Shown here: positions 45,230 to 64,000 of the stretch, in pieces
Position numbering within the stretch: the first letter of the stretch is position 1
How the letters are laid out: each line of letters opens with the position of its first letter
Assembly (NCBI GenBank): GCA_000708835.1
Contig: DF237387.1
Coordinates: 12,975 to 76,974 of the forward strand
Reading direction: 5' to 3'
From: Klebsormidium nitens
Lineage: Eukaryota > Plantae > Klebsormidiophyceae
DNA: 64,000 bases
The notes under the pieces: model-generated
The model's input: only the letters and a program-made list of their open reading frames with translations
What the model was told of the DNA's origin: nothing
Databases searched by the model: none
Translations under genes and position numbers: made by a program

Positions 45230-45587
45230 AGGCTGACACATGTTGGACGTCATCGTTCTTGGTCATTCAGTATACCTCGAAACGTTCAATGCAGCACTGA
45301 GAGGAGCAGCTGCGCAATGCCATCCTGCAGCTGGCCAAATAACCTTTTTGAGGGTGCTCATGATGGGCAATCAGAAATTGCCCGCATTCCTATGCTCCGG
45401 CCCGGCGCTCCTGCTGGCTGGCTTGGTGTTAAACCTACTATCACGATGAATCAATTAGAATGTTTGCACTGTTGTTGATGCACCACTGCTAGCATCATTC
45501 CATCGTCACGTGATTGTTACCTCTTGCTAGACTGGGCAGCTGTGCCTCGGAGAATAGGACCTGTAGAACCTGAGAGAAGCTAGTTAA

Positions 45588-47227
45588 ATGTCCAATGCTG
45601 CCCCCTTTGCTGCCCCCTTGGTTGACTTTGACCCAAGACAGTACGAGGCAGCGCCAGCCATTGCACTGTCAGGGAACTCCCAGCTGCCAACTCAAAGCTG
45701 CCTTTGGCAATGCACCGACCTGTCAACCATAGCAAGCGAGAAACCAGACTGGGTTCTCATGCTTTGCAAAGAAGCATACCTGAAAGCTCTTCCAGGTAAG
45801 TTGGAGATCAAGGTAAGTTCCAGGAAGAATGATGCAGTTCAGGAATTGCAGCCAATCTACGCTGGCTTGGGAGCTGAATAGAGCCCCAATTTGGGAATGG
45901 CCGCAGGTTTTAGAGATTGATTTAACTGTTCTGTCAGGTTGCATCTTTCAGGGAGCCATGGTTTCAGGATGGTGGCTAATTTGAGCTGGGTTCTGCGTGA
46001 CGACGACGGTTGGCAGGTGGTTTCGCCCCTTACCAGCTATTTTCCTTCACAAAGCTTCAAGGCGAGGTTCACAGGACACTTGATATTTTCATAAGTGGAT
46101 TCGCAGATTCAAATGGCCTCGCAGAATTCTCTTGATGGTTTTGACAACTGAGCAGCATCGTGCACTTATCAGTCTGCCTTGATGAAAGATGAGCTACGAA
46201 CAGAGTCCTGCTGCTCATTTCTGCTCATTGCCTCTGCACTTTTTTGGTAACTGCAATCCCGAGAGCTTTCTGCAAAGCTAGCTGGCTAGCTCCTTCTGCG
46301 CAGCCCTGTGTTCTTGGTCAAGCCCCAAAACCCCCCCAAAAAATCATCCTCTTGAGGAGACCTTCGTGTTTCAGTCATTCCTTGTACATCTTTCATGTAA
46401 AGGACTGCGCCTCTTTGTTGTGTTTCTTTGTGACAGTCTAGAGTTTGGTCACGTGCAAACGCCCCAAGTGAAGTTGTCTTTGTCTCACAGGTGCTCTTGA
46501 CTGGGCTACCTCTTCAATGCTTTACTCCGGATGGTCTACTCTTCACAGCAAAGAGTTGCACTACTTTTGATAGGCTTGCGGCCGGTTCCTTCTACTATGA
46601 AACGAGGCGAGGTTCCTTCCAAAAATAGACATAAGAAAACCAAACTTCAGCCTGACAACAGGGACTGGGCACACATGATAACAAGTCACGAACCTCTCAA
46701 TAGGTATGTTGTGTGAATCGGAAAAGTAAGGACGGACGCTACAGGGGCATGGGATCGCTCTTGCAAAGTGTTTCATAGCAGAAATTCGAGCGGGCCTTGC
46801 ATCATCAGAAGATGCTTGCTTTCAAGTCAGCTTTCCTGGTGACATACCGATTTGCGTTTCCGGTTCTCTCTTTTCTTTGTCTCGTCCCCAAGTTACGAGT
46901 TTGTTTGAACTCAAACATCTCAAGAAACATCAGGTCACCTGTTTGCTCGAAGGTGATATCGAAGTCAGGAGCCGTAGTTCAAGCTTTATGGACCGTTTGC
47001 TTCCTACCGACCAAAGTCGGCAATCGTGAGAGACTAGACATTTGAGGTTGAAAACTGCCCCCGTTGTGGAGAAGGCTTTGTATGGTGGAGCTGGCGAGGT
47101 CGCGGCGCATGGCCGCATCTTTTTCGAATCTTCGTCATGCAATTCTGTGGTCGCTTGCAGAAATGGGGTCCGACCTCGTGAACGACCAGCCGTTGCAATG
47201 CTGCCAACTTGCGAGTCAAAAGTTTGA
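45588..47227 (+). CDS. Possible uncharacterised spliced gene
   Basis: ATG ORF MSNAAPFAAPLVDFDPRQYE..LKALPGKLEIK ends at a good AAG|GTAAG donor (~45812), and there is a coding-like segment near 47042-47227. No family recognised. Confidence 0.2.
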
Positions 47228-48462
47228 AAAGAGGAAGCAAACGCTCGGGAGGTGAGTTTGCTGTATTGCAGCCCGAATTGTTTCAAGCTTGGCTTCAAAG
47301 AGTTCAGATTCAAGTCCAGCCATACTTTTCTTGTTGCCCGCGCTGAAGGGTCCATGCCGGATTGACGGCACACTGAATCACCTTCAACGGTTAAGCGAGT
47401 TGATTAGGACTCGGTTCTCATTTGAACTCGGCAGTTAGCACGGTGCAGAAGCATGAGATGATGTTCTGCGTTTCCTGTCCGAAGCAAATGTGAAGCTAAA
47501 GTACGTACAAAAGAGGATCGACGGTCATAGCAAAACAGGGACGCGGGTGCTGCCACCTTGCCCAAAAGGCAGTCCGTTGAACAGGTTGTTAGAGCGCACT
47601 TTCTTAGGCTCTCGATCAAAAGTATCGGGCGGTTGAGCCTTCACGTCTTCGAACACCTGTACCGCATGCGAGCCCCTGATTTCCAGATGGAAAGTGCACT
47701 CACCAAAGAACGAAGGTCCCTAAACATTGCCACTTTCGTTTTGCAGGAGGATAACAGCCGGCCAAGATTTCTTGGTCTTGACTCCCCATCCCTGCCTTAC
47801 AAGAGTCGAATTCCCGGCCTATCAATTGACCACTTCCATCGTGTAAACAGGATGGTGACTTATATAGGCCAACAATTAAACTTACATATGTAGTTGCAAT
47901 CGTCACTGCAAGAGTCATGACTGAAGATGAAAATCGATTGTCGGACTGCTTCCAAGTACAAGTTTTGACGGTTTCGTTCAGATCAACTTGCCGCGGCCGA
48001 GCTTACAGTCGAAACGTCATATGAGCATAGTACGTGATTATTGGTGGTACCATGAAACCGAGGCCGTGCCGAGAGCCTCGTGCATATTGACAATGGTCCC
48101 TTAGAGGTTTACCCGCGCGGCCGTATATACGCACAGTGCGTACACACGCGCGCATGCCAAGCTGATACGCATTGATCGGCCTGGCCGGCCATACATGCAG
48201 CATGTTAGATATATGCATGGTATATCAAGGCGGGACCGCTTACCGTCAAACATGTCGGAGGGTAATTGATTAATTCAGGGCCCAGGGCCGGGATCGTGCA
48301 CTCATCATTGCATGGCTTCGATGTTTCACAACGCGTGGTGTGCACGATTATTGCAGTTGCAATTCCGGGGTGAGTACGGGAGTTGGACACCAGTATATGC
48401 TCTCATCATAAGGGCGAAGTAAGTAAGATAATGTCCATCATACCCAGAATTAATGTTACCAA

Positions 48463-51400
48463 TCAAGAAGGCCTGGCTTTTTTTGACGCACGACTTGTAT
48501 TTGAAAAGCTTCCCTCCGGTTCCTTCTTCTTGCTGCAGCGGCGCTCGGCAAGCTTCTCTATGTACTTCCAAGGTTGAGAAGGGTCAACCCCAGCCGCAGC
48601 CATACTAGCCTCGACCGCTTCAATTGCTGCAGCCTCATCCACGTTACCTCTCCGCATGACGTCTTCTATGATTATGCACAGTTTGCGGAACTTGGAGAAA
48701 TACCTGATCTCTTTCACCCGCCCCCTCCTCCATGAACAGCCGTACAGATCCTCCAAATCCCTCAAGGGAAGCGGACAGCCTGGCTTGCCATGTGCCCATT
48801 CACTCCAATATTGAGCTACACACTGGTAATCTCTTCCTACCGTGTAACCCGAAACCCATTCGGGAAGGACGGTCGCATTCGAACGAACCCTCACAAAGGC
48901 CTGTCCGACGTCTGCGCTTTCTCTAAGAAGTTCGCCGTCCAGCTGGACTTCTCCACTGGGCTGTACGCCACCAGTCGTGCTGCTCGCTGGCCCCCCCTCT
49001 GGTGCACTACTGTATGCAGGCACCCTCTCCGGTGCGCGGCTGTTCTCTCCCCCCTCCTCTGGTGCGTGGCTGTCCGCGGGCACCCTCGCCGGTGCCCCGC
49101 CGTTTGAGGCGACCGCGTCCGAGGCGCGGCTGTCCGCTGCGCCCCCCTCTGGGGCTTGGCTGTTTTCTGTTCCTCCTTCTCGGGCAGGGCTGCCCGTTGG
49201 ACTCCCGTTCGGTGCGCGTGTGTCCGCGGGCCTCCTCTCTGGTGCGCAGCCGTTGGCGGCGACCGCGTCCGGTGCGCGGGTGTCCGCGGACGTCCCCGCC
49301 GGTGCGGGGCTGTCCGAAGCGCCCCCTTCCGGTGCGCGACTGTCCGAAGCGCCCCCTTTCGGTGGCACGCAGCTGTCCGCGGACGCCCCTGCCGGTTCGC
49401 GGCGGTCCACAGCTCCCCCGTCCGGCGCGCAACTGTCCGCGGCGCCCCCGTCCGGTGTGCTGCCGTCCGTTGGCACACTCCCCGAGCACGCGGCCGCTCG
49501 TGCGGCTGCTCTTAAGGCAGCCTCTGTTGCTGCCGTAAGCGATGAGCTCGGGGGCCGAGCGAAAAAGGTCGGATGGCTTCTTCGGACAGCGGATTGCCCG
49601 CGCTCCACGGCAGTTGAAGCCCCACGTTCCCCGGTCGAGGAGGGGCTCGGAATTGCCCCAAAACGTTGGCCGGAACCGGAGTCCTGAAGGAGTCTCCTTA
49701 GTCCCGCCACCTCCTGCGCCAATTCCGCGATCTGCTTGAGGCCCGCTCGTTCCTTCTCCTTGCAGTCGCGAACGTCGCGTTGGATCCCAGCCAACAGTGC
49801 CTGATGATCCCGGAGGAGTGTAATGACCTGCATAGAGCATACTCCAATGATTTGGGAGGCGACATGATGAGCGCGTCCTACGATATTTGACAGAAGAAGA
49901 GGGAAGCAAAAGTACGCCCGTAAAAGCATGCGCGGACCTTGCCGAGTTGCATAAGGACATCTCCGAAATGGATGACCGACGTGTCTCCTTTCCGAACAAA
50001 ATCAGATACGAAGCTGACGTTTTATTGGCCCGTTCATCGACCGACACACTTGGCAAAGCCTTTGTCAGGGTCTGAATAGGGCTGTGGTACACCAAGGAGA
50101 TACTTCGCTTGAAACGAAGACCTGCCCTGCTGACACGGTGGTCGTGTTTTGAATCAACCGTGATGCATTGTCCAAGCGAAGCGGTCTCACGGAAAGAACT
50201 TTGCTTATCTAAGCTCCCGAGGAGAAAGCATGCAGATCATAAGTTTCTTCACGCAGGTCAATCAGAACTCCGACCCCGATGGTGTAACGTACATTGGAGC
50301 AACACATCATAACAGTTGACTTTCAGCAAACAATCTGAACAGATGGGTACGTCTCTCTAAACCTTGAAAGCTAGTTCGGGATTCACCTCGGGTGGCAGGT
50401 TGATGAGTTGCGGCGGGGCCTCCGGTGCGTTGCACGCTTCCAAGACCTCCGCCGCAAACGAGTCCCAGTCATCGCCCTCAAAGATAGAGTGGTAGATGAT
50501 GGGGTGACCGAGGTACTTTTCAAGGCTTTGTAGCACGGCCACGTCCTGGAGGATGACCGCACGCAGCTCAATGAGCAGCTCGACGAAGCGCTGTGCGGCG
50601 ATGTCCCGCTCAGCCACGGGGCGAGTGAGATTCTTCTGCAGAGACTCGGTGAAAGTTAGCGTCTCTTCAAAAGAAGCTCTTTCTCCGTACGATGTACGCT
50701 GTTCGTCTCCTGATAGCAAATCGTAGTGCCCGAGCACGGCGGTGACAACAACCTCAGCCAAAGGAGAAGACCTTATTGCCGTGACCGGTGTGTTTTTTAC
50801 TACTGTATGGTTCTCCAATTCGGTCCCGAGCGCTTCCTTTGAGCACGACTTGACCGGATTTTGAACACCCGGAACCATTGACCTCCAAGTACAAAGTGAA
50901 GTCTTCAAGTCTTCCTCGGAAGCCGCGGTTTTGAAAGAGCAAAGACCGTCTGATATGCAAGAACTCTTGAAGAATGGCGCAGGCATCTTCTTGGATTAAC
51001 GCTCTCTTCAACCAGTGACTAAGGGGAGAAACTCACGTTCCTGATGTACGTGAGCGCATCTTCCGCCCACGGAAAGATCTTGGCCGCTAAATCTGGATGG
51101 TTGGTCTCAGGGCGTGCGCGGCCGCGCTTGAGCACGTACGCCTTCCGGTCGTCCGAGGAACCAGCATTGATGAGCATGGCACCGACCGGCAGCTGGTTGA
51201 GGTAGGACGTCCGGAAGTGGTCGTAGATCCAGCGTCCAAGTCGGGCGCTCTCCCCCTCTTTTCCACTGCAAACATCAAAGGCAGTGATGTTATCTACTTC
51301 TCGATGCAAACATGCAGGCAAGCCTTTGCATCTTTAAGAGACTCCTGAAGACACGTTGTGCAACCTAAACGGCCTGCCTGCACAAACGCGATGCCTGACA

Positions 51401-54400
51401 GCGGCTGTGCAAGCGATGAGGTATCAAGTCGTCAGAATGAGGACCTCGGACAATCGATATACGGACAGATTCTGTAGATCGAAACGATCCTCGCCAAAAC
51501 TTGGGCAACAGGTATGCTTGCAAGGGTCAGACCATGGCAAAGCTGTTGGGAGGGAAAGCGCATAGATGTGGGCCAGGCTGCTTACCCATTGTCTTCGGCA
51601 TGCCTGACGGACGACCCACGTGGCGCGTGGGTGATCTTGCTGCTGACCACGTGCTCGTGTTGAAACATGGTCTTGAATTGCTTGAGCTGGGTGTCGTACT
51701 CCATTTTCTCGAAGATGTCGTCGTTCTCGTAGAAGAGCGGAAACTTGTTGTACCTGCGTCAAAAGGACAATGGTGTCGTGACACGCTCTGACGGTTCAAC
51801 ATACGAGGTGAATACGTATTCCACTTCAAACCATCGTCACTCTGGGAAAAGATCGACAAGCTTGGTGGACCGAAGGAACATAAAAGGGAAAAAGGTCAGT
51901 GCAACCGACAGCAACAATCGACAGCAACAACGGGAGCTGAGCCATTCCTTGCCTAAGCCTATACGCAAAAACTCTGAGAGAGAGCACAAGTCCCTTACCA
52001 GGCGGCCCTTGAACTGAAGTCTGGATATGAACCGGGCTCCGGGAACAGGATATGAAACGTCTGGAAGAGCTGGAACGCCACGGCGCCAACGGCGCACTCC
52101 TCCACGTTCTTGTGGCGGAAGCCTCCGAAATATTCAAGCCGCCCGTTCTGAAAAAGTGAGTACTGACTGCATAAACAACTCGAACTGTACTGGCTGATGC
52201 TTCTAAATCATGTTTCTGGCTTGGCTTCAGTGGAGGCAGATCGAGAAGAACTTCGTACTAAAGGGGCTTCAAAACCTGACGCAACCCCTACATAAGCGCC
52301 TTGAGAACGTTGGCCTTCAGGGCATTATAAGACCGTTTCAGGACTGCCTCGACGGGAAGTTCAGGCTAATCTTTCGTTTCTCTTCATCCAAAACACGCCG
52401 CGTCTTCACCGCTTCAGGGCTCTGCCACGTACTACTTACCTTGTTCGTTTTGCCGCAGTAGCTGACGCCGCCCACGAAGAGAGGGACGTCAGGTCCAACA
52501 TTAGTGAACTTTTTGCAATACAGATCCGGGAGGTCGATGCTGCGGCCGTCATCGCCACGAAGGACAAACTGGTGCGAAGCCAGAAACATTCCCCTGTCGC
52601 AAACGAAAGAGAAACTTACGGCTCTGAGCACAAACCAGTGGCAACCAAACGCACATGTAAGATGTCGAGTGCTCCACGGTCTTAGTTTGCTGCTAAGCCA
52701 AACAGCAGTGCTTCGCACAGGAAACCTCGATAAAGTTGGCGCCAGGTTAGCTCGGGGTTAAGATGGGCGCAAAACCTTAGAGCCACCGAAGGAAGCCGAC
52801 AAGGCGCTCTCAATCTCAGTGCTCAGTGCAGCTGTCCCTCAGTGACAGCGCTCACTTGAAGGCCAGCTCTTACCTCATTGTGGTATGCTGATGGGCTGAA
52901 TCCACCTCCTCGCCGTCGTTGAAGGCGGTGTTGGGACAAGCTGCATAGAGCCAAGCCTGACAAAGCCGCAACTTCTCCTCCGCTGTGTACCCGTCCGACT
53001 CCGTCCCCGCTTGGCGGTCGGCGCAAGTCCTGCAGATAATACTTGAAGCTTCAGCCTTTCATGTCCGCTTGTTGTTTGATCGAAAAGTCTTTGACTGTTG
53101 GAGTCGGTTTACGATTTTGACACCGAAAGTAGCACTATGCAGTAGATTAACAATTTGAAAGCGTTAGTTGAGAAGCAGAGGTGCAAGGAAACAAGCATAA
53201 AACTGGATTCAAAACGTTAGAGACGTGTGACCGGTGTTCCAAAGGTCCTCCTAATCAGTGGGAAGGACATATTTGGGTCCGCTTTGATATACGAGATGTC
53301 ATGCACCACAGCCTGACGCCTCGCATATTTCCCACAGCTATCACCATAGCCTCTTGCCTATGCGGGGACGGCAAGACGGCATCGGAAGTAGTGACGCAAG
53401 TTCATGCATACGGTGTTCGGACCACAATAAATGAATTGTGGAAATCGAGCTGGCACCCCACCGGATTTTCTTCTGCCCTGTGTTGAGCTGCGCAGCTTTG
53501 AGAAGTTGTTGCATGGTTGGTATAGCGCGAACGTCGCAAGATTGCTCGTGTATGCCGTCGAGGTTGTCTTGAACGAGCGCGAAAAACTGCATGCCCTTGA
53601 CGAAGTTGTTGACAACGCCGAATGACTGCAAAAGGAACGAAAGTCCGAAGGTCAATGTCGGAGTGTGAGAGTTTTGTGACTTTCGGTGCACTTGCAACGA
53701 GCAACGGAGTCCCCTCTCTGAGCGTCGGCGAAAGCTCTTCTAAGGCCCATACGACTTTCATGATTCACAGTGGCGAATCAAGACAAAGATCCAGAGAACT
53801 TTCTTACTTTTGTATCAGGTACAGGCAGGTAGGTGCAAGCAGGCTCAACGTAACATGGAGCATCTACTGGCAGATCTGATGAGAGATGAAGAATTTAATC
53901 TTTGTTACAAGACACAAGACACAGACCTGGACCAAAACTGGTGGGGCGCTGAGGCACGTGTTCGTTTCTACTGTTTGTAACATCGTCAAGGAAAACGATG
54001 CCCATCTCCAGCGACCCACTTATCCTTGAGCTTACCATATCCTTGTTGTTGAGTTGGCCGAGGAGATTGACCGCGAGAGCAATCCTGCTGGTGGTGATGC
54101 GCGGGCCGCATGCCCACTCCGGAAGAGCCTCTTGGCGCAGCAAACCTTGGACGTAAGGATTCCGCGGGGGAGCCCACGGACCATCGGCGGTGCCGTGACC
54201 GTTGGTTCTGCAGAAGTTCTGGAGAAGGAAGCAAAATGAATGAGACTCTTACAAGTTGCCACAAAGTATACGACTGGCTGGCTGGACTGGTGGGTACGAG
54301 CGGGTTCCGTAACTACCACGTGTAGCAATAGTGCCAATTCGCTCAAGCATGTGTGTTGTCGAGAAGAACCCCTACGGTCTTAGGTCGGAACTTTGCAGTT

Positions 54401-55639
54401 TCATTCTCGCTCCGAACATTCTTGAAGAACTTAGCAGGCAGGAGACGCGTTACTGTAAGCGATACTTTGTGAGGGGGCTTGAGCGCCGTAGGGTCAGAGA
54501 TTTTTACAAGCTGACGTCAGCAATACTCGGAGGAACTGCAGTACCTAACCGGACAATAATTCTGAACCCGACTTTGAGACGGACGGTTGGACTCCTTCGA
54601 GCGCTTCAAACCAAAAAAACGAAAGAGCTATTGCATTCGCTGTTATCGACTGTCCGCAAGGGCCTGGAACATTGCGAGCTCGCGGTTCGTGGACATGAGC
54701 TGACGTCAGCAACACCTGATCAATTTGCGCTTTATGGAACGACACTCTTTTCAAACAAGACGGTGTTATGTAACCGTTGGCCGTTTCAAAGCTGTAGCAC
54801 GGTATCGCAACGCTGTAGCGACTTTTCAAAAACGGACTGGACTACTGCCGGCTTGGAGGTGCTGACACGAGATGACGTCAGCAATACGGTGAAGAAGCAC
54901 ACTGTCTGGCCACACCCTTTTTAGAAAGCACTTCGGACAGGCATTTGGAACCGCAGATTTTAATGGAGCCCCCGCTCCTTGATTGCGAATAGAAAGACGA
55001 CCGCGCACTCCTAATCATTTTCTGCCAAAGAGGTGATAACGCCCGGTCGAAAGTGTGAACGCACCTTGTACGTCCTCAGTGCCCGAATGTAGTCCTTGTA
55101 ACTCTTGGGCTTCAGCTCGTCGACCTTCATGATGGCTGCGGTCCAGTTGGCCTGCGCTTGCTGGTCCTCATGGCTCATGTGCCCAGGCACCCCGGTTCCG
55201 CCCGGAGATTCCGCAGCATCAGCGGAACCCGGGGCCGCTTGCCCAGAAGTCTGCTCGCTTCCATTCCCAGAGGTCCCCGGCTCCGCTGAAATACCGTCGA
55301 GCACGCTAGTGCCCGCTCTCCGCCCCCCTCGCCTACTTCTCCCGGCCCCCGTGCTCCCTCCCCGACCGGTTGCCCTTCTCACCGGAGCCCCAGTCGCTCC
55401 CCCGGTCCCTTGGTTCCGTTTCCGTTTCCGTCGCGGGGCTTCCGGCTGTGGTTCTTGGGGGATCCCCTCAAAGTTCGGCGATAGGACGTCCCCGCCGCCA
55501 GCAGCAGCGGCAGTCCTTCGGCCGCGCAAATCGATGGGCACGTCTTCGCTGTCTTCGTGCTCTTCCTCGCAGGTTGAGCGCGGTGGAGGTGAAGCTGGGC
55601 CCGGATTCTTTTCGATGCCGCTTCGAAAGAGCAGAATCT
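48463..55639 (-). CDS. Crypton-type tyrosine recombinase/transposase (NDC10 domain II-like YR + C-terminal GCR1_C), preceded by a 2A-like peptide
   Basis: Ten exons join without stop or frameshift: 55065-55639, 54036-54218, 53462-53625, 52874-53029, 52440-52593, 51999-52147, 51586-51753, 51037-51265, 50363-50635, 48463-49827 (3416 nt). Motifs: DRQAGTESDGYT, FVLRGDDGRSIDLPDL, GKTNKNGRLEYFGGFRHKNVEECAVGAVAF, PDFSSRAAWYNK, KITHAPRGSSVRHAEDNG, RLGRW, FRTSYLNQLP, KIFPW, AAQRFVELLIELRAVILQDVAVL and GCR1_C-like YTVGRDYQCVAQYWSEWAHG..LRDLEDLYGCSWRR..YFSKFRKL. Confidence 0.92.
48988..49470 (-). repeat. Coding tandem repeat, about 16 units of 30 bp (10 aa; consensus ~ADSRAPEGGA), in the Crypton last exon
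   Basis: TDGSTPDGGA ADSCAPDGGA VDRREPAGAS ADSCVPPKGGA SDSRAPEGGA SDSPAPAGTS ADTRAPDAVA ... ENSRAPERVP AYSSAPEGGP. Confidence 0.9.
55596..55619 (-). other. 2A-like (StopGo) ribosomal-skipping motif GIEKNPG/P
   Basis: The minus strand reads ATT CTG CTC TTT CGA AGC GGC ATC GAA AAG AAT CCG GGC CCA = ILLFRSGIEKNPGP, in frame with the recombinase. Confidence 0.7.
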
Positions 55640-56132
55640 CTGAAACACAGATCACGAGCGATTACATAGCGTCGCACCTACTCACAAGAACCTGCTCGCA
55701 ACTTCTTCTGAGGTTGTGCTTCAATGTCCGTTGAGTTCTATCGGAGACTGTGGCGTGGTCTTTTAATCAAAGAGTATGGCCTTTCGACATGGTTCGAAAA
55801 GTAAGCTAGCGAACTTGTCAACGCCTTGTCATTGGTCAAACTAACATGTGTACCTCACTTGAGCACGTTGGCTGGAGGGTCGAAAACTGGGGTCAAAGCC
55901 ACTTGCTTCTGATCGAGACTGGAGTCGACAAACGCATTGCAAAGCAGCTTAAGTTGCTACACCATAGGTTGATCATAGAGTGCGAAGCAGACGATGCCAA
56001 TCAGACCCCTAGAGAGGCCCACATTCCAAGATCATTAAAACGGCCTGGTTGTGGGGCATGAACAGATTCTAGTGCCTTTCAAAGTAACCAGGGATACAGA
56101 AGAGACAACATAAGATGGCATGGAAGACATAC

Positions 56133-57277
56133 CGATGATGGCTCGGCTTAGCGCTTGTTGGATCCCAATGTTGAGATCCTTATGGAACTTCTCCGGCAGC
56201 CCACGTTCGCTCTCCAGCCAGTAGCGAGTGCTTCCCACAGAGCTGGTCCAACCTGTAAACGAATGCTTGGCAATGAAGGAACGATCTCAAAATTGAAAAC
56301 AAAACTGAAACCTGTGACAATGCTAGAGCATCTCCGCACGTTCAACCTAGTGGCCTGTTAACAGAGTGAAAGTCGACTGTACTAGCTGATTTGGAAGCAC
56401 CACCTAAAGCTCGGGGCTCCTGCACGAAGCGGCCACGATAACTACCCACAATCGATATTGCAGACCCCCTCTACGGAACACCTTCTACCTTGAACAGGAA
56501 GATCTCAGATTGATGCGGCAGCCCTGGCGCATCACCTACCATATGGTGAGAGAAGATGCGATAAAGCTATCAGGAGCTGACCGCAACATTGAGCAATCTA
56601 GTAAAGTACATATCAGAAGGGTGTCTGATGCGGAAGGTATTTGGGGGCTCACACAGCAGTTGCCGTGCCGTTGCGAGAGCCGTCTCCAGCATCTTTCCGC
56701 GCCAGCTCTCTTGCAACTCGTGGAGCTCATTCAAACGGCGTGCAACTTCTGCTTGAGACTTGGCCTTGTCGTCAACCTGACGCTGCGTGCGTCCGTCAAT
56801 CCACTCTGCATGGTTGGAAGATGTTCTGTAGTCAGTCAGAAAAGCTGGTTACGAAGACTTCATACTACAAGGTTTTGCTATACTACTGAGGGTCACAGTC
56901 AGAAACTTCCCTTTCAACTGCTGAGCTGCTGTAGGCACCAAGGGGCAGTCTTGCTCTGTGCCAGGAACCAGCTTCATGGAAGGGGCTTTACTGAATTGCC
57001 AAGTACATTCCAAGCGACAATCGCCCCTGCACGAGCAAGATTCATACCCTTTGATCACCGAAGCAGAAACTGTTGTTGTAAGCAAGTATGATTTATCATT
57101 AGCAATCATCACCTTGGCGGTCAGGATCAATGCGGAAGTAGCCCGCAGCGACAGTTCCGCTGCGAGAGTCTGCTGGCTTGTGCTTCTGACATCGGTACTC
57201 CATTTTACCATGCTTGCCCCCAAGCCGTCCATGTGAAGCATGAGCCCCACAGCAATCACATTGGAGTTGGAAGACAT
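56133..57277 (-). CDS. Upstream in-frame exons of the Crypton transcription unit (Cys/His zinc-finger-like motif plus helical segment)
   Basis: Three phase-1/phase-1 exons: 57113-57277 (DVFQLQCDCCGAHASHGRLGGKHGKMEYRCQKHKP), 56653-56805 (EWIDGRTQRQVDDKAKSQAEVARRLNELHELQESWRGKMLE) and 56133-56252 (CWTSSVGSTRYWLESERGLPEKFHKDLNIGIQQALSRAII). The last phase-1 donor matches the phase-1 acceptor at 55639. A further candidate exon ends at 57771 (GGGG|GTAAG). The start codon is unresolved. Confidence 0.6.
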
Positions 57278-60200
57278 CTGCAGATGTCCAAAAGGATCTT
57301 TGAGATTTATCAAAGATGAGGAGATTCATCAAAGATGAGGAAAACAATCAGCATCATCATAAAGAGACGGGCTCCTGTGGCAACTTATACCCAACTTGTA
57401 TTCCTCGCACAAGCGGTCAGACTCGCACGTTGAAACAAAGGCACCAATAAAATCCAAGACCTCTATGGTTATCTAACCAAACGACTGCCAGGTCGGTGAG
57501 CTGCCAGGCTGTGGCATGTACGGCCCACCAAACTATCCCAATATTGCATCGGCCTCAGTCAATGTCATCAATGGACAAGGCTTCTGAAAGGCCTCCATCC
57601 ACATTTAGACACAACATAAGGGCAACCAGGCAAGTGAGACAGCCTGCTGCATGTATGTCCACGAAGCCAGGCGTCAAAGCAGATTAGTGAGAGGCATGCC
57701 AAAACTCAGAGCAAGAGTAGGCACTGTACATCTGACCTGGCATTCAGAGAAAAGAAATCAAAGCTCTTACCCCCTAGCTCTTCTATCATGATGGATGCCA
57801 TAGAGTCAGATGATGGCTTCAACACACTGCAGGGTGCAGACGACTCTCTAGCTGTGTATGGGCTGTCAAGTGTGGAAGATGCAGGAGGGTGGCTGTTTTT
57901 GTGATGCAGCTGGGTTCTCTGCTTTAGATTCGGATTGGTCCTATGCTTTGGAATAGAGGCATGATGGAATAGAGGCCTGACGAGCTGTAGCCCCAAGCGA
58001 GCTACCAGACAAGGAGGTGAGCTTCTGCAAGATGCTTAACCCATCCGGAACCCTCCCAGCAACTGCGATTGCCACAAGACAGTGGTGCCCGCAGCAGGGA
58101 AAAGAGGCAATCCTACTCAGCTGCTAAAGCTGACCGAAGAAGATGGAAGCATATGTCCTGGACCACTGCTCACACTGCACTCCTCCCAATGTTTTGACCC
58201 CCTTCTTCCCAGCAGAAGGTTCTGTCAAGGCGTCTTCCTCTCCAGCTCTCAAAATCTGGTTGTGGCAGTGGCAGTACCCGGCATTGGACAACCAACTTGC
58301 GGTACCAAGACTCATGATCTAATAGAAGTACCTAACAGGGCGCCCTGTGATCAAATTGAGGTATCAAAGTCTTCAGGTATTTGCAAGGTTTGGTTTGAAA
58401 TTTGAATTCTGAGCAGATGGGTTCAATCAACGGTTTACTGTGCAAATTGGTTTGCACGAGCGTCGGCGGCAGAGGGCATGCACGCGGCGGCGGGCAAAAT
58501 GACTTTGCCGTACGCGCTGTAGTACGAAGCAGGGCTACAGGTACTCACATAGACTCTCCAAGGCGTACAATTATTCCTTCAGTACTTAGGACTACTTTGT
58601 AGTGTCTTGATCGCACGATCGCATGGTTATCGCCCGGTCTAAAACCGGGGATCGCATGCGATTCCCAAGACTGTCGCCAGGGAAGGGGCGACTTATACGG
58701 TAGCTGGCCGGGAGCTGCACACATTTGGAGCGTCGCCAGCTGCTAGCTGGTGCCAGTGCTGGCGCCTCTGATCAGTCTGATGGGCCAGCATGGGCCAGCA
58801 TCGTCAGGCAATCAGGCAGGCGCCGTCATTTTGCGTGTGTCGCATGTACACCATCGTACTTCTGACGTGAGGGGCTCATCATTGGCAATGCATAATGAGA
58901 TTCAAGAACCAGCTGCACCAGGAGCGGAGTTAGGGCAGGAAGGCAGCTGGCGGATCAAGAAGAGATGGGGGGAGGATCGTACAGCTCATAGAAGGATGCG
59001 GAGGAAAGCAGGCTGGTTGACTGCTAACGGCTAATGCGTTCGGCAGTTTGGGAACGAGTATAGGCGTTTGGCAAGGCGGGCGGGCTACCTTCAAACGTGG
59101 CACAATTGACTGGGGCGTTGACAGAAGGGCCGGCCCGGCCGCTTCTCTGCACGGGGAATGCCATGAGTAGAGTGGATAAACGGCCGGCTAATCTGTTTTC
59201 TGGTCGGAATTGAAAAGACTGGAAGAGGGCAGGGCTGCCCAACTGATGCAACAGAACTGTTTACGATTGCCAGGGAGTCGTTGACAGGCCCTTGACAGGG
59301 GGTACGGGCCGGCACTGGAGGCGAGCAGGCGAAGTTCAGTTTGCGGCCCCTTTGCGGCGGACCTGCTGGCAAGTTGGAAGTGCGTTTTTATGACGGTGAG
59401 CCCAAGCAAGAGCAACAGCGGCAAGGTCATCTTCGGTCGCTTCGTGAAGGGGGAAGGAGGTTAGGAAGAAGGAGAACTTGGAGAACTCGAAAGCCGGTCC
59501 TTGCCAAAATTGTAAGAGACCTAATTTGTCTTCGAAGCTTCGATCACCTCGTGGCAGCGTTCTTTCTTGAAGAAGTGGAACGTTTCTGTGAGAATTTTGT
59601 GCAATGGTTTCCCAACTCTCAGGGTGCGAGCAGCTGTGGGGCATCTGCTACTAAGCCAGCCGTAAATATTTGACGAGATTCGGCGCCATCGGAGAAGTGC
59701 CGCTGATCATCTGATCAAGAAAAGGCCACTGCTGGAGATGCACCTCAGCATGGAGCCTTCGCTCGAATTTCGGAACGGCTGACCTGTACGCCGGTGTGAC
59801 GGTGCAGGCAAGTGTCGATCTGCTCAAGACAAAGTGAGGGCACTCGAAGAAGAGATTTGATGCTTTCGTCAGCAGCCGGGCAAAATCCTTCGCAGGTGGA
59901 GTCAGGATACAGGCCCGGGACTCGGCGGGTCTTGTGCAGTCGATGGAAAGTAGGGAGCGTTCAACCTAAGATCTGAGAAACGCTTTGTGTGGCCCGTGCA
60001 GAAGAGGTCTTAGAAGACAAGGTGTGAACAGCAACGCCACGTCAGGGTGCGAAAAGGTGAGTGAAAGTCCACGAAAGTGATATTGCATATCCTTATCCGC
60101 ATATAGCCGCATGAACAGTGTTGCTTTCAAAGATGCGGGGAGTGGGATTGCAAATGGGCTTGCAAAATGGTGACTAGGGGTAAGTGTCGTCGTTCATAAG

Positions 60201-61358
60201 GGATGTCAAAGCTGGTGAGTGGTAGACTCCCTTTTGCGAGATGGTCAACAATCGTGTTGTGTTCTTGGGCCTTTTCTACGTCTCGGTGAAAGGGTGGGTC
60301 GTGCGTCAACGCGTGGCCTGCGGTGCTTGGGGCCATCGCGCTGGTGTGCTTTCATATGCACGATCTCAGTGGTGCCTGTACGTGAGGCAATCTCCTCTGA
60401 ATCCGAAGAATAAGTGAGCGGTTAGACAAGTGGCAACTGAGTTCGTAAGGTTTCGACGTCCGCAGCAAGGCCCAAGTACGCAGGTAGGGCAGACTGCTTG
60501 ACGACAAGTCGTTGGATGGTGGGCCTTCATTAAGGCTATCTCAAGTGACGATCTATATAAAATCAATTGCACGACGCACGCCCGGCGCGGCGCCCTGGAA
60601 CGCGCCGTGATGTGTATATATGGTCATGCATCAAATTGCCACACTAAGTTTAGGCAACTACGCACAGTTGTGAATTTTGAAATCGAGGTGAGTCGGAAAC
60701 GGCATGTGGTGTTCAGCGTGCTGCATGTCAACGTACTGTGCGGTGTGGTGTGGACTGCGTCACCGACTGGAACGGTTAACTCGCGCGGTGTAGTTTTGCA
60801 GGCAGTAAGCGGCGAGCCCAAGTTGCAAACCGCCAATTAACGTGCGGTGTAACACATCCTCAACAGTGCGATGCCATGCGGATCGGCCGTCATTGATTGT
60901 AGTCCACGCGGTAAGAGTCCAAGAGGCTTTTACTAGCAGCATACGGTAGTGTTTGGGCTGCACAGTTTTTACCTAGTATAAGGCCCGTGGGACCCGGCGT
61001 CTTGTGTGCTCAATATCATGTAAAACTGGACATTTACAAGCCCTAAGCAAAATATGTCACCTATATCAATACAATAAGTAAGCATGGATGGCTAGTACAA
61101 GCATTTGTCGGTCTTGCCTTCTGCAAGTCGTCGCCTTGCACAACGGCTCAACAATTGCGAAGATTTGCTGGTAAGTCTGCAAGGCTTTTGGCACTATTTG
61201 GCAAGGCGTCATGCGGTTCTGATTAGCTCTACCGACCGCCAAAAAGCTGGAACTTGGCTGGACGCTCGAAGGACTGCCGGAGGCTATGGCGAGAGCAACA
61301 ATTGAAACACCAACAGCTCCTAACCAAACAACAGCCGGCAAGTCAAAGGACAAGTTAC

Positions 61359-63280
61359 CTATCTGGGGGTTAAAAACCTAGACTCGACCTGGACGGTCGA
61401 AGCGAGCTGCCTCGACCCTAAGTCGTAGCTGCCAGACAGGAAAGAGCCTGACCCATCAAGATCCCAAGCAGACCCGGCTCCCTGATTGGTCGACGCCACA
61501 CTCGTGTCAGCGGCCTGCTTGCTAAGCTGCCACCACACCTGGTCCATAGACGGCCGCCGAGATGGGTCCTTGCACAGGCAGCTCAGTGCGATTGCGATGT
61601 AGCGCTGCGCTTCAGCCATGTCGTACGCGCCACCAAGCAAAGGGTCGATCAGCTCCAGCACCCTCCCTTTGCGAGCGTACTCTTCCCCGGTTTCGGACAG
61701 TCGCTCGACCAGGCCGCTCTCAAGTTGCCGCACCACCGGACGCGCGGAGAGGACCTCCAGGCACAACACGCCGAAGCTGTAGACGTCGCACCTCGGGGAC
61801 AAGAACCGAGCTCCCCCGTGCAGGTATTCAGGGGCCATGTACGGCACGGTGCCCTTCACCATGGTGGACGTCACGTGGCCCCCCGCACCGCTCACCAGGT
61901 GTGCAAGGCCGAAGTCGGTGATGCACGCGCGCACCGGGGGTCCCTCCGCCAGCAGGATGTTCCCCGCTTTGATGTCCCGGTGCAGCATCGGGGGCTGGAT
62001 GTCATTGTGCAGGTAGTTGAGGCCTCGGGCAATATCTCGAATCACACCAGTGCGCTCTTCCCAGGTGAGCGCCGGTCCCCTGCCCTCCCTTGCAGCATGC
62101 AGCTGCCCGCCAAGGCTGCCATGCGGGAAAAACTCCAGGACGAGCAGGCACTCTCCCGCGTCGACGCAGACCCCCAGCAGTGGCACCAGGTTTTTGTGCC
62201 GGACCTTCTCGAGCGCCTCCACCTCCACGCGCCATGACCGCTCCTCCACATCGCCGCGCCCCAGGCGCTGCAGCAGCCGCTTCACCGCCACGACCCTGTT
62301 CGGACCTCTGGAAAGGGTCGCCTTATACACGATTCCGAAGGAGCCACGTCCGACGACATTGGCATCGCTGAAGTCGTCCGTCCCCTCCCTAAGCTCGGTT
62401 AGTGTGTACTGCCCCTGATAACGTGGCAGCGGGGAATTATGCTTTGGGGGTTGCCTCGGCTGGGGCCTTGAACCAGGTTGCGGGGATAAAACAGGTGGCT
62501 CCGACGTCGGGCGTCTCTGAGGAGGCTGCCGCGGATTGGGCTTTGGGATTCGGGATGACTGGGCATGTGTCGTAGAGTGGGGGGACAAAACTGGCGCAGA
62601 AGGAGCTGGGTTTGTCGGGGCAGAAGGGAATGTGCCCGCTGAGGACACCAGGTTTTCGGCCCCATCTTCTGCGTCTTCTATTTTCTCCAGGGCCACCCCA
62701 GCCTGCCGCATCTGGTGGCGCCTTTTTCTATGGTATAGGACACCCAAACAAATGGCAAGGAGGAGCAAAGTCGCCCCCGCAACCACTGCCCCGATGATGA
62801 TGCCCAAGGGTTGATTATTTCTTGGCCATTGCAAATCAGGGTTCCCGTCAAGGATATCTTTCTTATCAAACTTCACCAAAGTACTAGGAACCATGCCAGA
62901 GAGATTGTTATGTCCCAACAAAAGGCCCCAGAGGTAGGCGGGCTTGCCAAGTTGTGAAGGAATGTTGCCAGACAGCGAATTGAAACTCAAATCCATTAAT
63001 TGGAGTCTGGTGAGATTGCCAAGCTGAGGAGGAATGCTGCCAGACAGCAGATTGTTTCCCAGTTCGATGAATTCGAGGTTGGTCATGTTGCCAAGCTGAG
63101 GAGGAATGCTGCCAGACAGCTTATTGTTCTTAAGTTTTAGAGATTGGAGTCTTGTCAGATTCCCTAGCTCGGGAGGAATAGTGCCTACCAGGTTGGGGCC
63201 TTTAAGGTCCAATTCCGTCAGATTTGTGAGCATACCTAGTTGAGGTGGTATGGTCCCATTAAGTTGTATGTAGTCATAGC
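61359..63280 (-). CDS. Leucine-rich-repeat receptor-like kinase (RLK/Pelle family); 5' exon unresolved
   Basis: Plant-type LRRs (LxxLxLxxNxLSGSIPPQLGNLT), TM IIIGAVVAGATLLLLAICLGVL followed by HRKRR, and a Pro-rich juxtamembrane region. Kinase motifs: VGRGSFGIVYK, VAVK, HKNLVPLLG, HRDIKAGNILL, DFGLA, GTVPYMAPEY, DVYSFGV, CLCKDPSRRPSM. An acceptor (ctaac..cttag) lies at 63281. Confidence 0.93.
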
Positions 63281-64000
63281 CTAAGCGAATAGGTTAGCTG
63301 AGACAGGAGGACTCCAGGATACTGAAGTTGGATCTCGTCCATTGTAAGTGGAGAGACTGGGAAGATCAGCCAGCACCAGCTCAGTAGAATGATGAGCTGA
63401 GGCCTGTGATTGGGCAGCATGCTTGCTGGTGTGGGTTGCAAGTCGACTAAGAATCCTTCTTTGGCTTCAGAAGCTGGCCTGAAAACATGGAAACAAAGGT
63501 AGGCATCAGTACACTCCCTTTCTGCCACATTGATCTGACCAATACATAGAGCCAATTTTGAATCTTCTACTTGCAACCCTAGAGGGCAGATTCAGTCGTT
63601 TGTTCTGACACCGACGTCAAGTTTTCTGTTTACAAACAAGAGGTAGAAGGCAATATGGCCCAGCCTAGCTGTGGCTAAAAAAATTGTGTATCAAAGTGGG
63701 CTGATAGTGATATCAAAACCGGGTCAAAACCAAGGAACAAACCAGAAGGAAACAGGGAGGTTTGATAGTGAGGTAGTTTAGACGATTAGATATTGCACTG
63801 TCAATCTGGAACGAGAATACAACAGACATTCAGTAGTTTTGCACGATAAGCTGTAACACCTCAACACCTAAGTCCTGTATAGACCAAGAAAGTCGCCGCT
63901 AGCAATCGTTTTTTGAAGTAGTAGCATTCAGCCCCACATTCTCACCAATGATGTAGCACAACAGATAATCGAAGTCAGTCAGGGCTATTGTGACGGTTGG

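Follow-up and report, generated by a model that had tools for sequence, protein, structure and literature searches.

Within 64,000 nt of contig DF237387.1 from the streptophyte alga Klebsormidium nitens (the window, to whose first base all coordinates refer) lies a minus-strand gene that resembles the recombinases of CryptonF transposons. What is such a gene in this genome, and what does it make? The sequence and its transcripts indicate that it is a real, expressed CryptonF-type recombinase gene with apparently intact catalytic motifs. On balance, we favour the view that the locus is a gene, spliced and transcribed, from a CryptonF-type family that is old and low in copy number, likely a tyrosine-recombinase (YR) DNA transposon, carrying a conserved 2A (StopGo) motif at which ribosomes are predicted to skip between Gly170 and Pro171. 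The element that appears to be new in this gene is the 2A motif itself, conserved, split by an intron and placed before a putative tyrosine recombinase.

The structure of the gene was established from sequencing contigs. Twenty of the 24 runs listed, from seven studies, contain the stretch, and we compared contigs of three RNA-type runs (X5, X9 and X13, from three studies) with those of a DNA run (X1). None of the listed runs is recorded as RNA; the label is presumed for X5, X9 and X13, whose contigs omit exactly the GT-AG introns. Thirteen introns are spliced out in all three, giving 14 exons, whereas X1 skips no intron among the 15 joints listed of a total of 25. A single 4551-nt contig runs from 58405 to 48377 and is exactly as long as the spliced message. 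Translation from the ATG at 57801 gives a 3861-nt frame of 1286 amino acids (aa), identical to the annotated K. nitens protein GAQ88550.1 (P0001), whose record is titled 'putative transcription activator'; the exon at 51265-51037 matches P0001 at 100%. The original prediction joined ten in-frame GT-AG exons between 55639 and 48463. These are confirmed and stop-free, but the model was incomplete: it had no start codon, and four more exons lie upstream (56252-56133, 56805-56653, 57277-57113 and 57771 to at least 58405). An in-frame GT at 50362, considered as the donor of exon 13, is excluded by the spliced contigs, which place the donor at 50386.

The domain content of the spliced protein is that of a CryptonF recombinase. 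Pfam finds NDC10_II at aa 519-806 (E 1.6e-25) and, as had been proposed for the C terminus, GCR1_C at aa 1161-1238 (E 1.3e-8); on the full protein there is no further family, and no reverse transcriptase or DDE transposase. A YR combined with GCR1_C defines CryptonF (PMC3212892). The five catalytic motifs named in the original prediction were all located on the minus strand (LRGDD 52562-52548, GKTNK 52454-52440, THAPR 51632-51618, LGRW 51240-51229 and RTSYL 51213-51199), and residues R528, K564, H659, R662, W685 and Y694 are retained in 3/3 full-length K. nitens copies. Judged by eye against the available part of the Kojima-Jurka alignment, motif order is co-linear with that of CryF1_PI, CryF1_PS and CryF1_RO, the order common to Phytophthora and Rhizopus CryptonF being DR..DGY, LR, GKT, PDF..WY, KxTHxxR, GRW, YL and LQD. 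Together with a plant-type neighbour, these domains and motifs bear out the idea of an intact CryptonF-like recombinase in an algal context. Searches of the Protein Data Bank by sequence returned low-complexity or chance matches only. A word-based search with the YR region among 6981 candidates (707-2251 aa) returned three K. nitens proteins only, and the nearest Atlas clusters by features, a lead only, are mostly diatom, Mucoromycota and oomycete proteins.

The 2A motif lies well upstream of these domains. It occupies 55619-55596, only 20 bases inside the point at which the original prediction began, and was missed there. The octapeptide is GIEKNPGP (aa 164-171) in P0001 and in its paralogue P0002, and NVESNPGP in a third copy, P0006, so that the motif is present in all three full-length copies. 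Both versions match the core (D/G/C/N)(V/I)ExNPGP that has been tested; G at its first position is a confirmed functional variant, and a tested N variant is about 90% active or more (PMC12846837). The core is expected by chance at 1.6e-5 per protein of such size, and was matched once in six frames across the window; because the motif was noticed post hoc, its conservation outweighs this figure. Positions -13 to -10 read ILLF, ILLL and MLLL in the three full-length copies. A leucine run at these positions has been linked to skipping and to reduced output (2026 preprint 10.64898/2026.06.17.732966), and the active IFV 2A peptide ends LIRAGIESNPGP, with an activity of 0.45 (PMC12338488 supplement 2). 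The motif is in frame within an open reading frame that continues on the spliced message. Its upstream portion is encoded by exon 4, and the 493-nt intron that follows is removed in all three RNA-type runs. RNA structure immediately 3' of the motif is unremarkable (z 0.59).

Conservation is concentrated before the predicted skip site. P0001 and P0002 share 64/70 residues upstream of NPGP, compared with 8-11/20 in several blocks of the downstream linker. Between P0001 and P0006 the alignment is ungapped over aa 107-170 and scores 75 with the octapeptide left out, where the best of 1000 shuffles scored 44. Their octapeptides differ at three positions and all three substitutions are compatible with the consensus. 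We consider it likely that the motif splits the product into a 170-aa leader and a 1116-aa recombinase, or else limits recombinase output.

The gene belongs to a small family. Three further K. nitens proteins, P0002, P0006 and the partial P0007, are encoded on separate contigs of 15-36 kb; P0002 is 92% identical to P0001 over the core, and P0006 64% identical in the recombinase. With the present locus, the family's accessions are GAQ88550, GAQ92643, GAQ92565 and GAQ91375. The borders of exon 12 are the same in the raw gene calls of both subfamilies, which indicates that the introns are old. Paralogue bubbles in DNA run X1 differ from the locus at 32 or more positions, and one translates to the P0002 sequence. 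The two bubbles with fuller coverage together give 29 differences in 105 codons, with pS 0.20, pN 0.058 and dN/dS 0.26; a third, with 3 differences, all synonymous, was excluded, as its list of differences may be incomplete. Hence, selection between copies is purifying. Most of the gene has a DNA contig depth of about 20, which gives no sign of a near-identical copy. Metagenome and Logan collections hold fragments of the family, and one metagenome fragment is altered at otherwise invariant residues. At the DNA level, 235 and 124 pattern matches in metagenome contigs and 328 in viral contigs included none that was confirmed. The annotation of P0002 (GAQ92643.1) has no exon matching 54218-54036, yet a DNA paralogue bubble covers that exon, and the gene model is therefore probably incomplete. 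Elsewhere in the protein, the 10-aa repeat in the exon-14 linker is longer and differently expanded in P0002, and P0006 has a different repeat.

Comparison with known systems sets the gene apart in specific ways. Like fungal and oomycete CryptonF (PMC3212892), it encodes a single protein with a YR and a C-terminal GCR1_C, with the motifs DR..DGY, LR, GKT, HxxR, GRW and Y in the same order. In contrast to those elements, the K. nitens protein has about 300 extra N-terminal residues that hold the 2A motif, and its gene has a long low-complexity linker, 13 introns and a length of at least 10 kb (1.8-6 kb in the others); a terminal repeat was not found at the locus. The published proteins begin near the position of aa 300, and the part of the gapped alignment available contains no NPGP. 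Within the green lineage, CryptonF-1_cRei of Chlamydomonas reinhardtii is labelled as having a YR and GCR1_C, as here, and is an active transposon with terminus CACCG and target CAYCG; a figure legend in the same paper mentions introns in active Chlamydomonas elements (PMC9977147). CryptonF in the green lineage was thus already known and is extended here to streptophyte algae. The earlier suggestion that Cryptons are unrecognised in streptophytes holds in so far as we found no report of CryptonF in that group in the literature searched, and a passage of a Penium preprint names DIRS and Ngaro alone in K. nitens; as a claim of novelty for the green lineage as a whole it was overstated. The domesticated CryptonF derivatives of yeast, Cbf2/Ndc10, Gcr1, Msn1 and Hot1, resemble the gene in their NDC10_II or GCR1_C matches in Pfam and in being transcribed, host-like genes.

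The 2A motif has its own relatives. RNA-virus 2As of the IFV type, with G at -7, combine the core octapeptide with a leucine-rich run upstream, as in K. nitens, and the 2As of APE-type non-LTR retrotransposons (L1Tc, Ingi, CR1 and Crack; PMC3708506) similarly lie near the N terminus, before the catalytic domains. Unlike these, the K. nitens motif stands ahead of a tyrosine recombinase in a protein that lacks reverse transcriptase, and is a putative 2A in a streptophyte nuclear gene, split by a spliceosomal intron. Natural StopGo is described as mostly viral, its cellular cases being chiefly retrotransposons and a few animal genes, and as not found in plant viruses (PMC12846837); the portions of the literature consulted place 2A in retroelements, both non-LTR and LTR, and in certain animal genes. 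We found no report of a 2A in a DNA transposon in the literature searched, although supplementary tables of preprints could list such peptides without context. The K. nitens Crypton peptides are absent from the table of Rao 2025 (PMC12338488). Supplement 3 of that study has eight green-plant rows, two of which are a Klebsormidium protein, UPI000B56B393, with two LLRGGVESNPGP motifs. LLRGGVESNPGP is one residue away from the P0006 2A, and UPI000B56B393 and the Crypton family may owe their 2As to a common origin.

These observations suggest how the gene might work. One spliced message carries the leader, 2A, linker, recombinase and GCR1_C in frame. Skipping between Gly170 and Pro171 would release a 170-aa (19 kDa) leader and a separate recombinase of 1116 aa (120 kDa) starting at Pro171; the recombinase's own start would then fall roughly where published CryptonF proteins begin. 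Incomplete restart or stalling, which has been proposed to limit the output of non-LTR elements bearing 2A peptides (PMC3708506), would cap the amount of recombinase drawn from a well-transcribed message, and the five upstream ATGs within the 5' leader of the gene may limit it further. By analogy with CryptonF biology, and with CryptonF-1_cRei in particular, the recombinase would act on a short terminal motif, both excising and integrating the element through site-specific recombination. Whether StopGo lets Klebsormidium Cryptons produce both the conserved 19-kDa leader and the recombinase from a single spliced frame, the 2A being assembled only once the intron has been removed so that splicing and skipping would together control supply, is to our minds an evenly balanced question.

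Several considerations weigh against the 2A part of this explanation. In one screen 821 of 3,271 non-viral 2A-like peptides were active (10.64898/2026.06.17.732966), viral cores with G at -7 favour other upstream motifs (PMC12846837), and the evidence here is confined to copies from one species. The motif could then have lost its activity and persist as a relic, or belong to a folded domain of the leader, with the full-length 139-kDa protein as the sole product. This would accommodate the conservation of about 64 residues before the skip site, which exceeds the roughly 20-30 that a 2A needs. It is nevertheless improbable, since conservation stops at NPGP, no substitution between subfamilies departs from the tested consensus, and the leucine run sits where it should. 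The extent of upstream conservation instead suggests that the leader is likely to be functional in its own right. It gave no Pfam match, no Atlas lead (best 0.75) and no match among 27 shorter candidates, proteins of near or greater length not having been searched.

The transposon part of the explanation must contend with domestication, in which the locus is a fixed host gene for a DNA-binding protein or site-specific recombinase, its paralogues go back to old duplications and the 2A plays a part in host regulation. Steady expression, fully spliced in three studies, is equally compatible with a host gene, and the 13 host-like introns, the long leader and the persistence of exon 12 borders in a subfamily 64% identical all fit one. 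CryptonF elements are marked by a terminal direct repeat or donor motif of only 4-6 bp and have neither TIR nor TSD. Element ends were not found: words common to both flanks are at chance level, without long repeats. No DNA joint indicative of an empty site or circle was seen among the 15 joints listed of a total of 25 (one DNA run, contigs only), the unit of at least 10 kb exceeds the listed CryptonF elements, DNA depth is flat, and the closest copy, at pS 0.20, is far from identical to the locus. Moreover, AlphaFold on a 4-row alignment was uninformative (pLDDT 34), so that the catalytic assignments rest on sequence. The dN/dS of 0.26 over 105 codons also suits a host gene; purifying selection between copies is, however, expected of transposons too. 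Against domestication, the catalytic site is intact in all three full copies, and partial, apparently decaying copies exist. In the yeast derivatives Cbf2/Ndc10 and Gcr1, by contrast, that site has been lost (PMC3212892); the K. nitens gene differs from them also in its dispersed paralogues. Introns, for their part, are compatible with mobility (PMC13465315). We regard domestication as unlikely, though as a serious competitor to a mobile CryptonF. That a fungus or oomycete recently passed the gene on by horizontal transfer, or that the assembly is contaminated, is very improbable. The Atlas lead points towards such donors, and CryptonF transfer between fungi and oomycetes is documented (PMC3212892), but there is no close relative outside Klebsormidium-like records among the 6981 candidates, the subfamilies have diverged to 64% identity while keeping common exon borders, and GC3 is 0.73 in the recombinase core and 0.67 in the flanking leucine-rich repeat (LRR) receptor kinase gene. 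CryptonF is also present in chlorophytes (PMC9977147), which makes vertical descent at least as plausible as horizontal acquisition. An ancient transfer is conceivable. Assembly contamination is excluded: DNA contigs run unbroken across the 3' flank and the gene, transcripts occur in several studies and, as originally supposed, the flanks are plant-like, with the LRR receptor kinase gene upstream.

Table 1. Positions of the features of the CryptonF-type gene within the window.
Feature	Position	Strand	Basis
Exon 1 (leader of at least 604 nt with five upstream ATGs, then ATG 57801; aa 1-10)	57771 to at least 58405	-	RNA-type contigs
Exon 2 (aa 11-65; Cys/His-containing stretch of the pre-2A leader)	57113..57277	-	joints in 3/3 RNA-type runs
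Exon 3 (aa 66-116; pre-2A leader)	56653..56805	-	RNA-type contigs
Exon 4 (aa 117-156; ends in upstream portion of 2A peptide, ..SRAII)	56133..56252	-	RNA-type contigs
Intron, 493 nt, GT-AG, splitting the 2A peptide between -15 and -14	55640..56132	-	joint 55639/56133 in X5, X9 and X13, absent from X1
Exon 5 (aa 157-348; 2A core, low-complexity linker, start of recombinase N-terminal domain)	55065..55639	-	RNA-type contigs
2A/StopGo core octapeptide GIEKNPG/P (aa 164-171), predicted skip G170/P171	55596..55619	-	sequence
Basic run RRKRKR, possible nuclear localization signal, in poorly conserved exon-5 linker	55433-55416	-	sequence
Exon 6 (aa 349-409)	54036..54218	-	RNA-type contigs
Exon 7 (aa 410-463)	53462..53625	-	RNA-type contigs
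Exon 8 (aa 464-515)	52874..53029	-	RNA-type contigs
Exon 9 (aa 516-567; predicted catalytic R528 in LRGDD, K564 in GKT)	52440..52593	-	sequence and alignment
Exon 10 (aa 568-616)	51999..52147	-	RNA-type contigs
Exon 11 (aa 617-672; H659-x-x-R662)	51586..51753	-	sequence and alignment
Exon 12 (aa 673-749; W685, putative nucleophile Y694)	51037..51265	-	sequence and alignment
Exon 13 (aa 750-832; end of NDC10_II match; donor 50386)	50387..50635	-	RNA-type contigs, Pfam
Exon 14 (aa 833-1286 and stop; low-complexity linker, then GCR1_C)	48463..49827	-	RNA-type contigs
30-nt tandem repeat, about 15 degenerate copies (10-aa units), in exon-14 linker	49019..49484	-	repeat search
GCR1_C DNA-binding domain (aa 1161-1238)	48610..48843	-	Pfam, E 1.3e-8
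3' untranslated portion	48371..48462	-	RNA-type contig coverage

The upstream neighbour of the gene is a plant-type LRR receptor-like kinase gene (61359-63293, minus strand), and Pfam searches of 18 flanking frames returned nothing relevant except this kinase. On the other side, a neighbour at 45500-47916 on the plus strand is transcribed and spliced, with an intron at 47250-47744; its tested frames gave no match in Pfam. Inverted arms resembling a recombination site occur in the flanks at chance level; one pair (6 bp, 7-bp spacer) lies in a palindrome-rich stretch downstream of the gene, at 48208-48226, but with seven similar pairs upstream it does not exceed background. Over 58624-61500 an X1 DNA contig has a depth of 10.5, about half that over the gene. 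In X9, a contig that also carries the Crypton message skips a plus-strand GT..AG intron at 59395-60000, which suggests an opposite-strand transcript overlapping the Crypton 5' region. A candidate LINE-like remnant at 59450-60400 on the minus strand, just upstream of the Crypton leader, was set aside for want of Pfam support; judged by eye, pieces of its broken frames (LPT..RL, CxxxC, ES..LFFECP) resemble the zinc knuckle at the C terminus of ORF2 in L1-type LINEs.

If the proposed explanation is right, translational recoding would extend to DNA transposons, and a natural 2A would be recorded for the first time in an element of the tyrosine-recombinase type. The plant lineage, whose viruses seem to avoid the mechanism, would gain a native StopGo that works, and as a native streptophyte 2A this peptide might be of use for co-expression in plants and algae. 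A leader protein without known relatives would enter Crypton biology. As K. nitens can be cultured and has been sequenced, skipping, excision and domestication are all directly testable in the organism itself.

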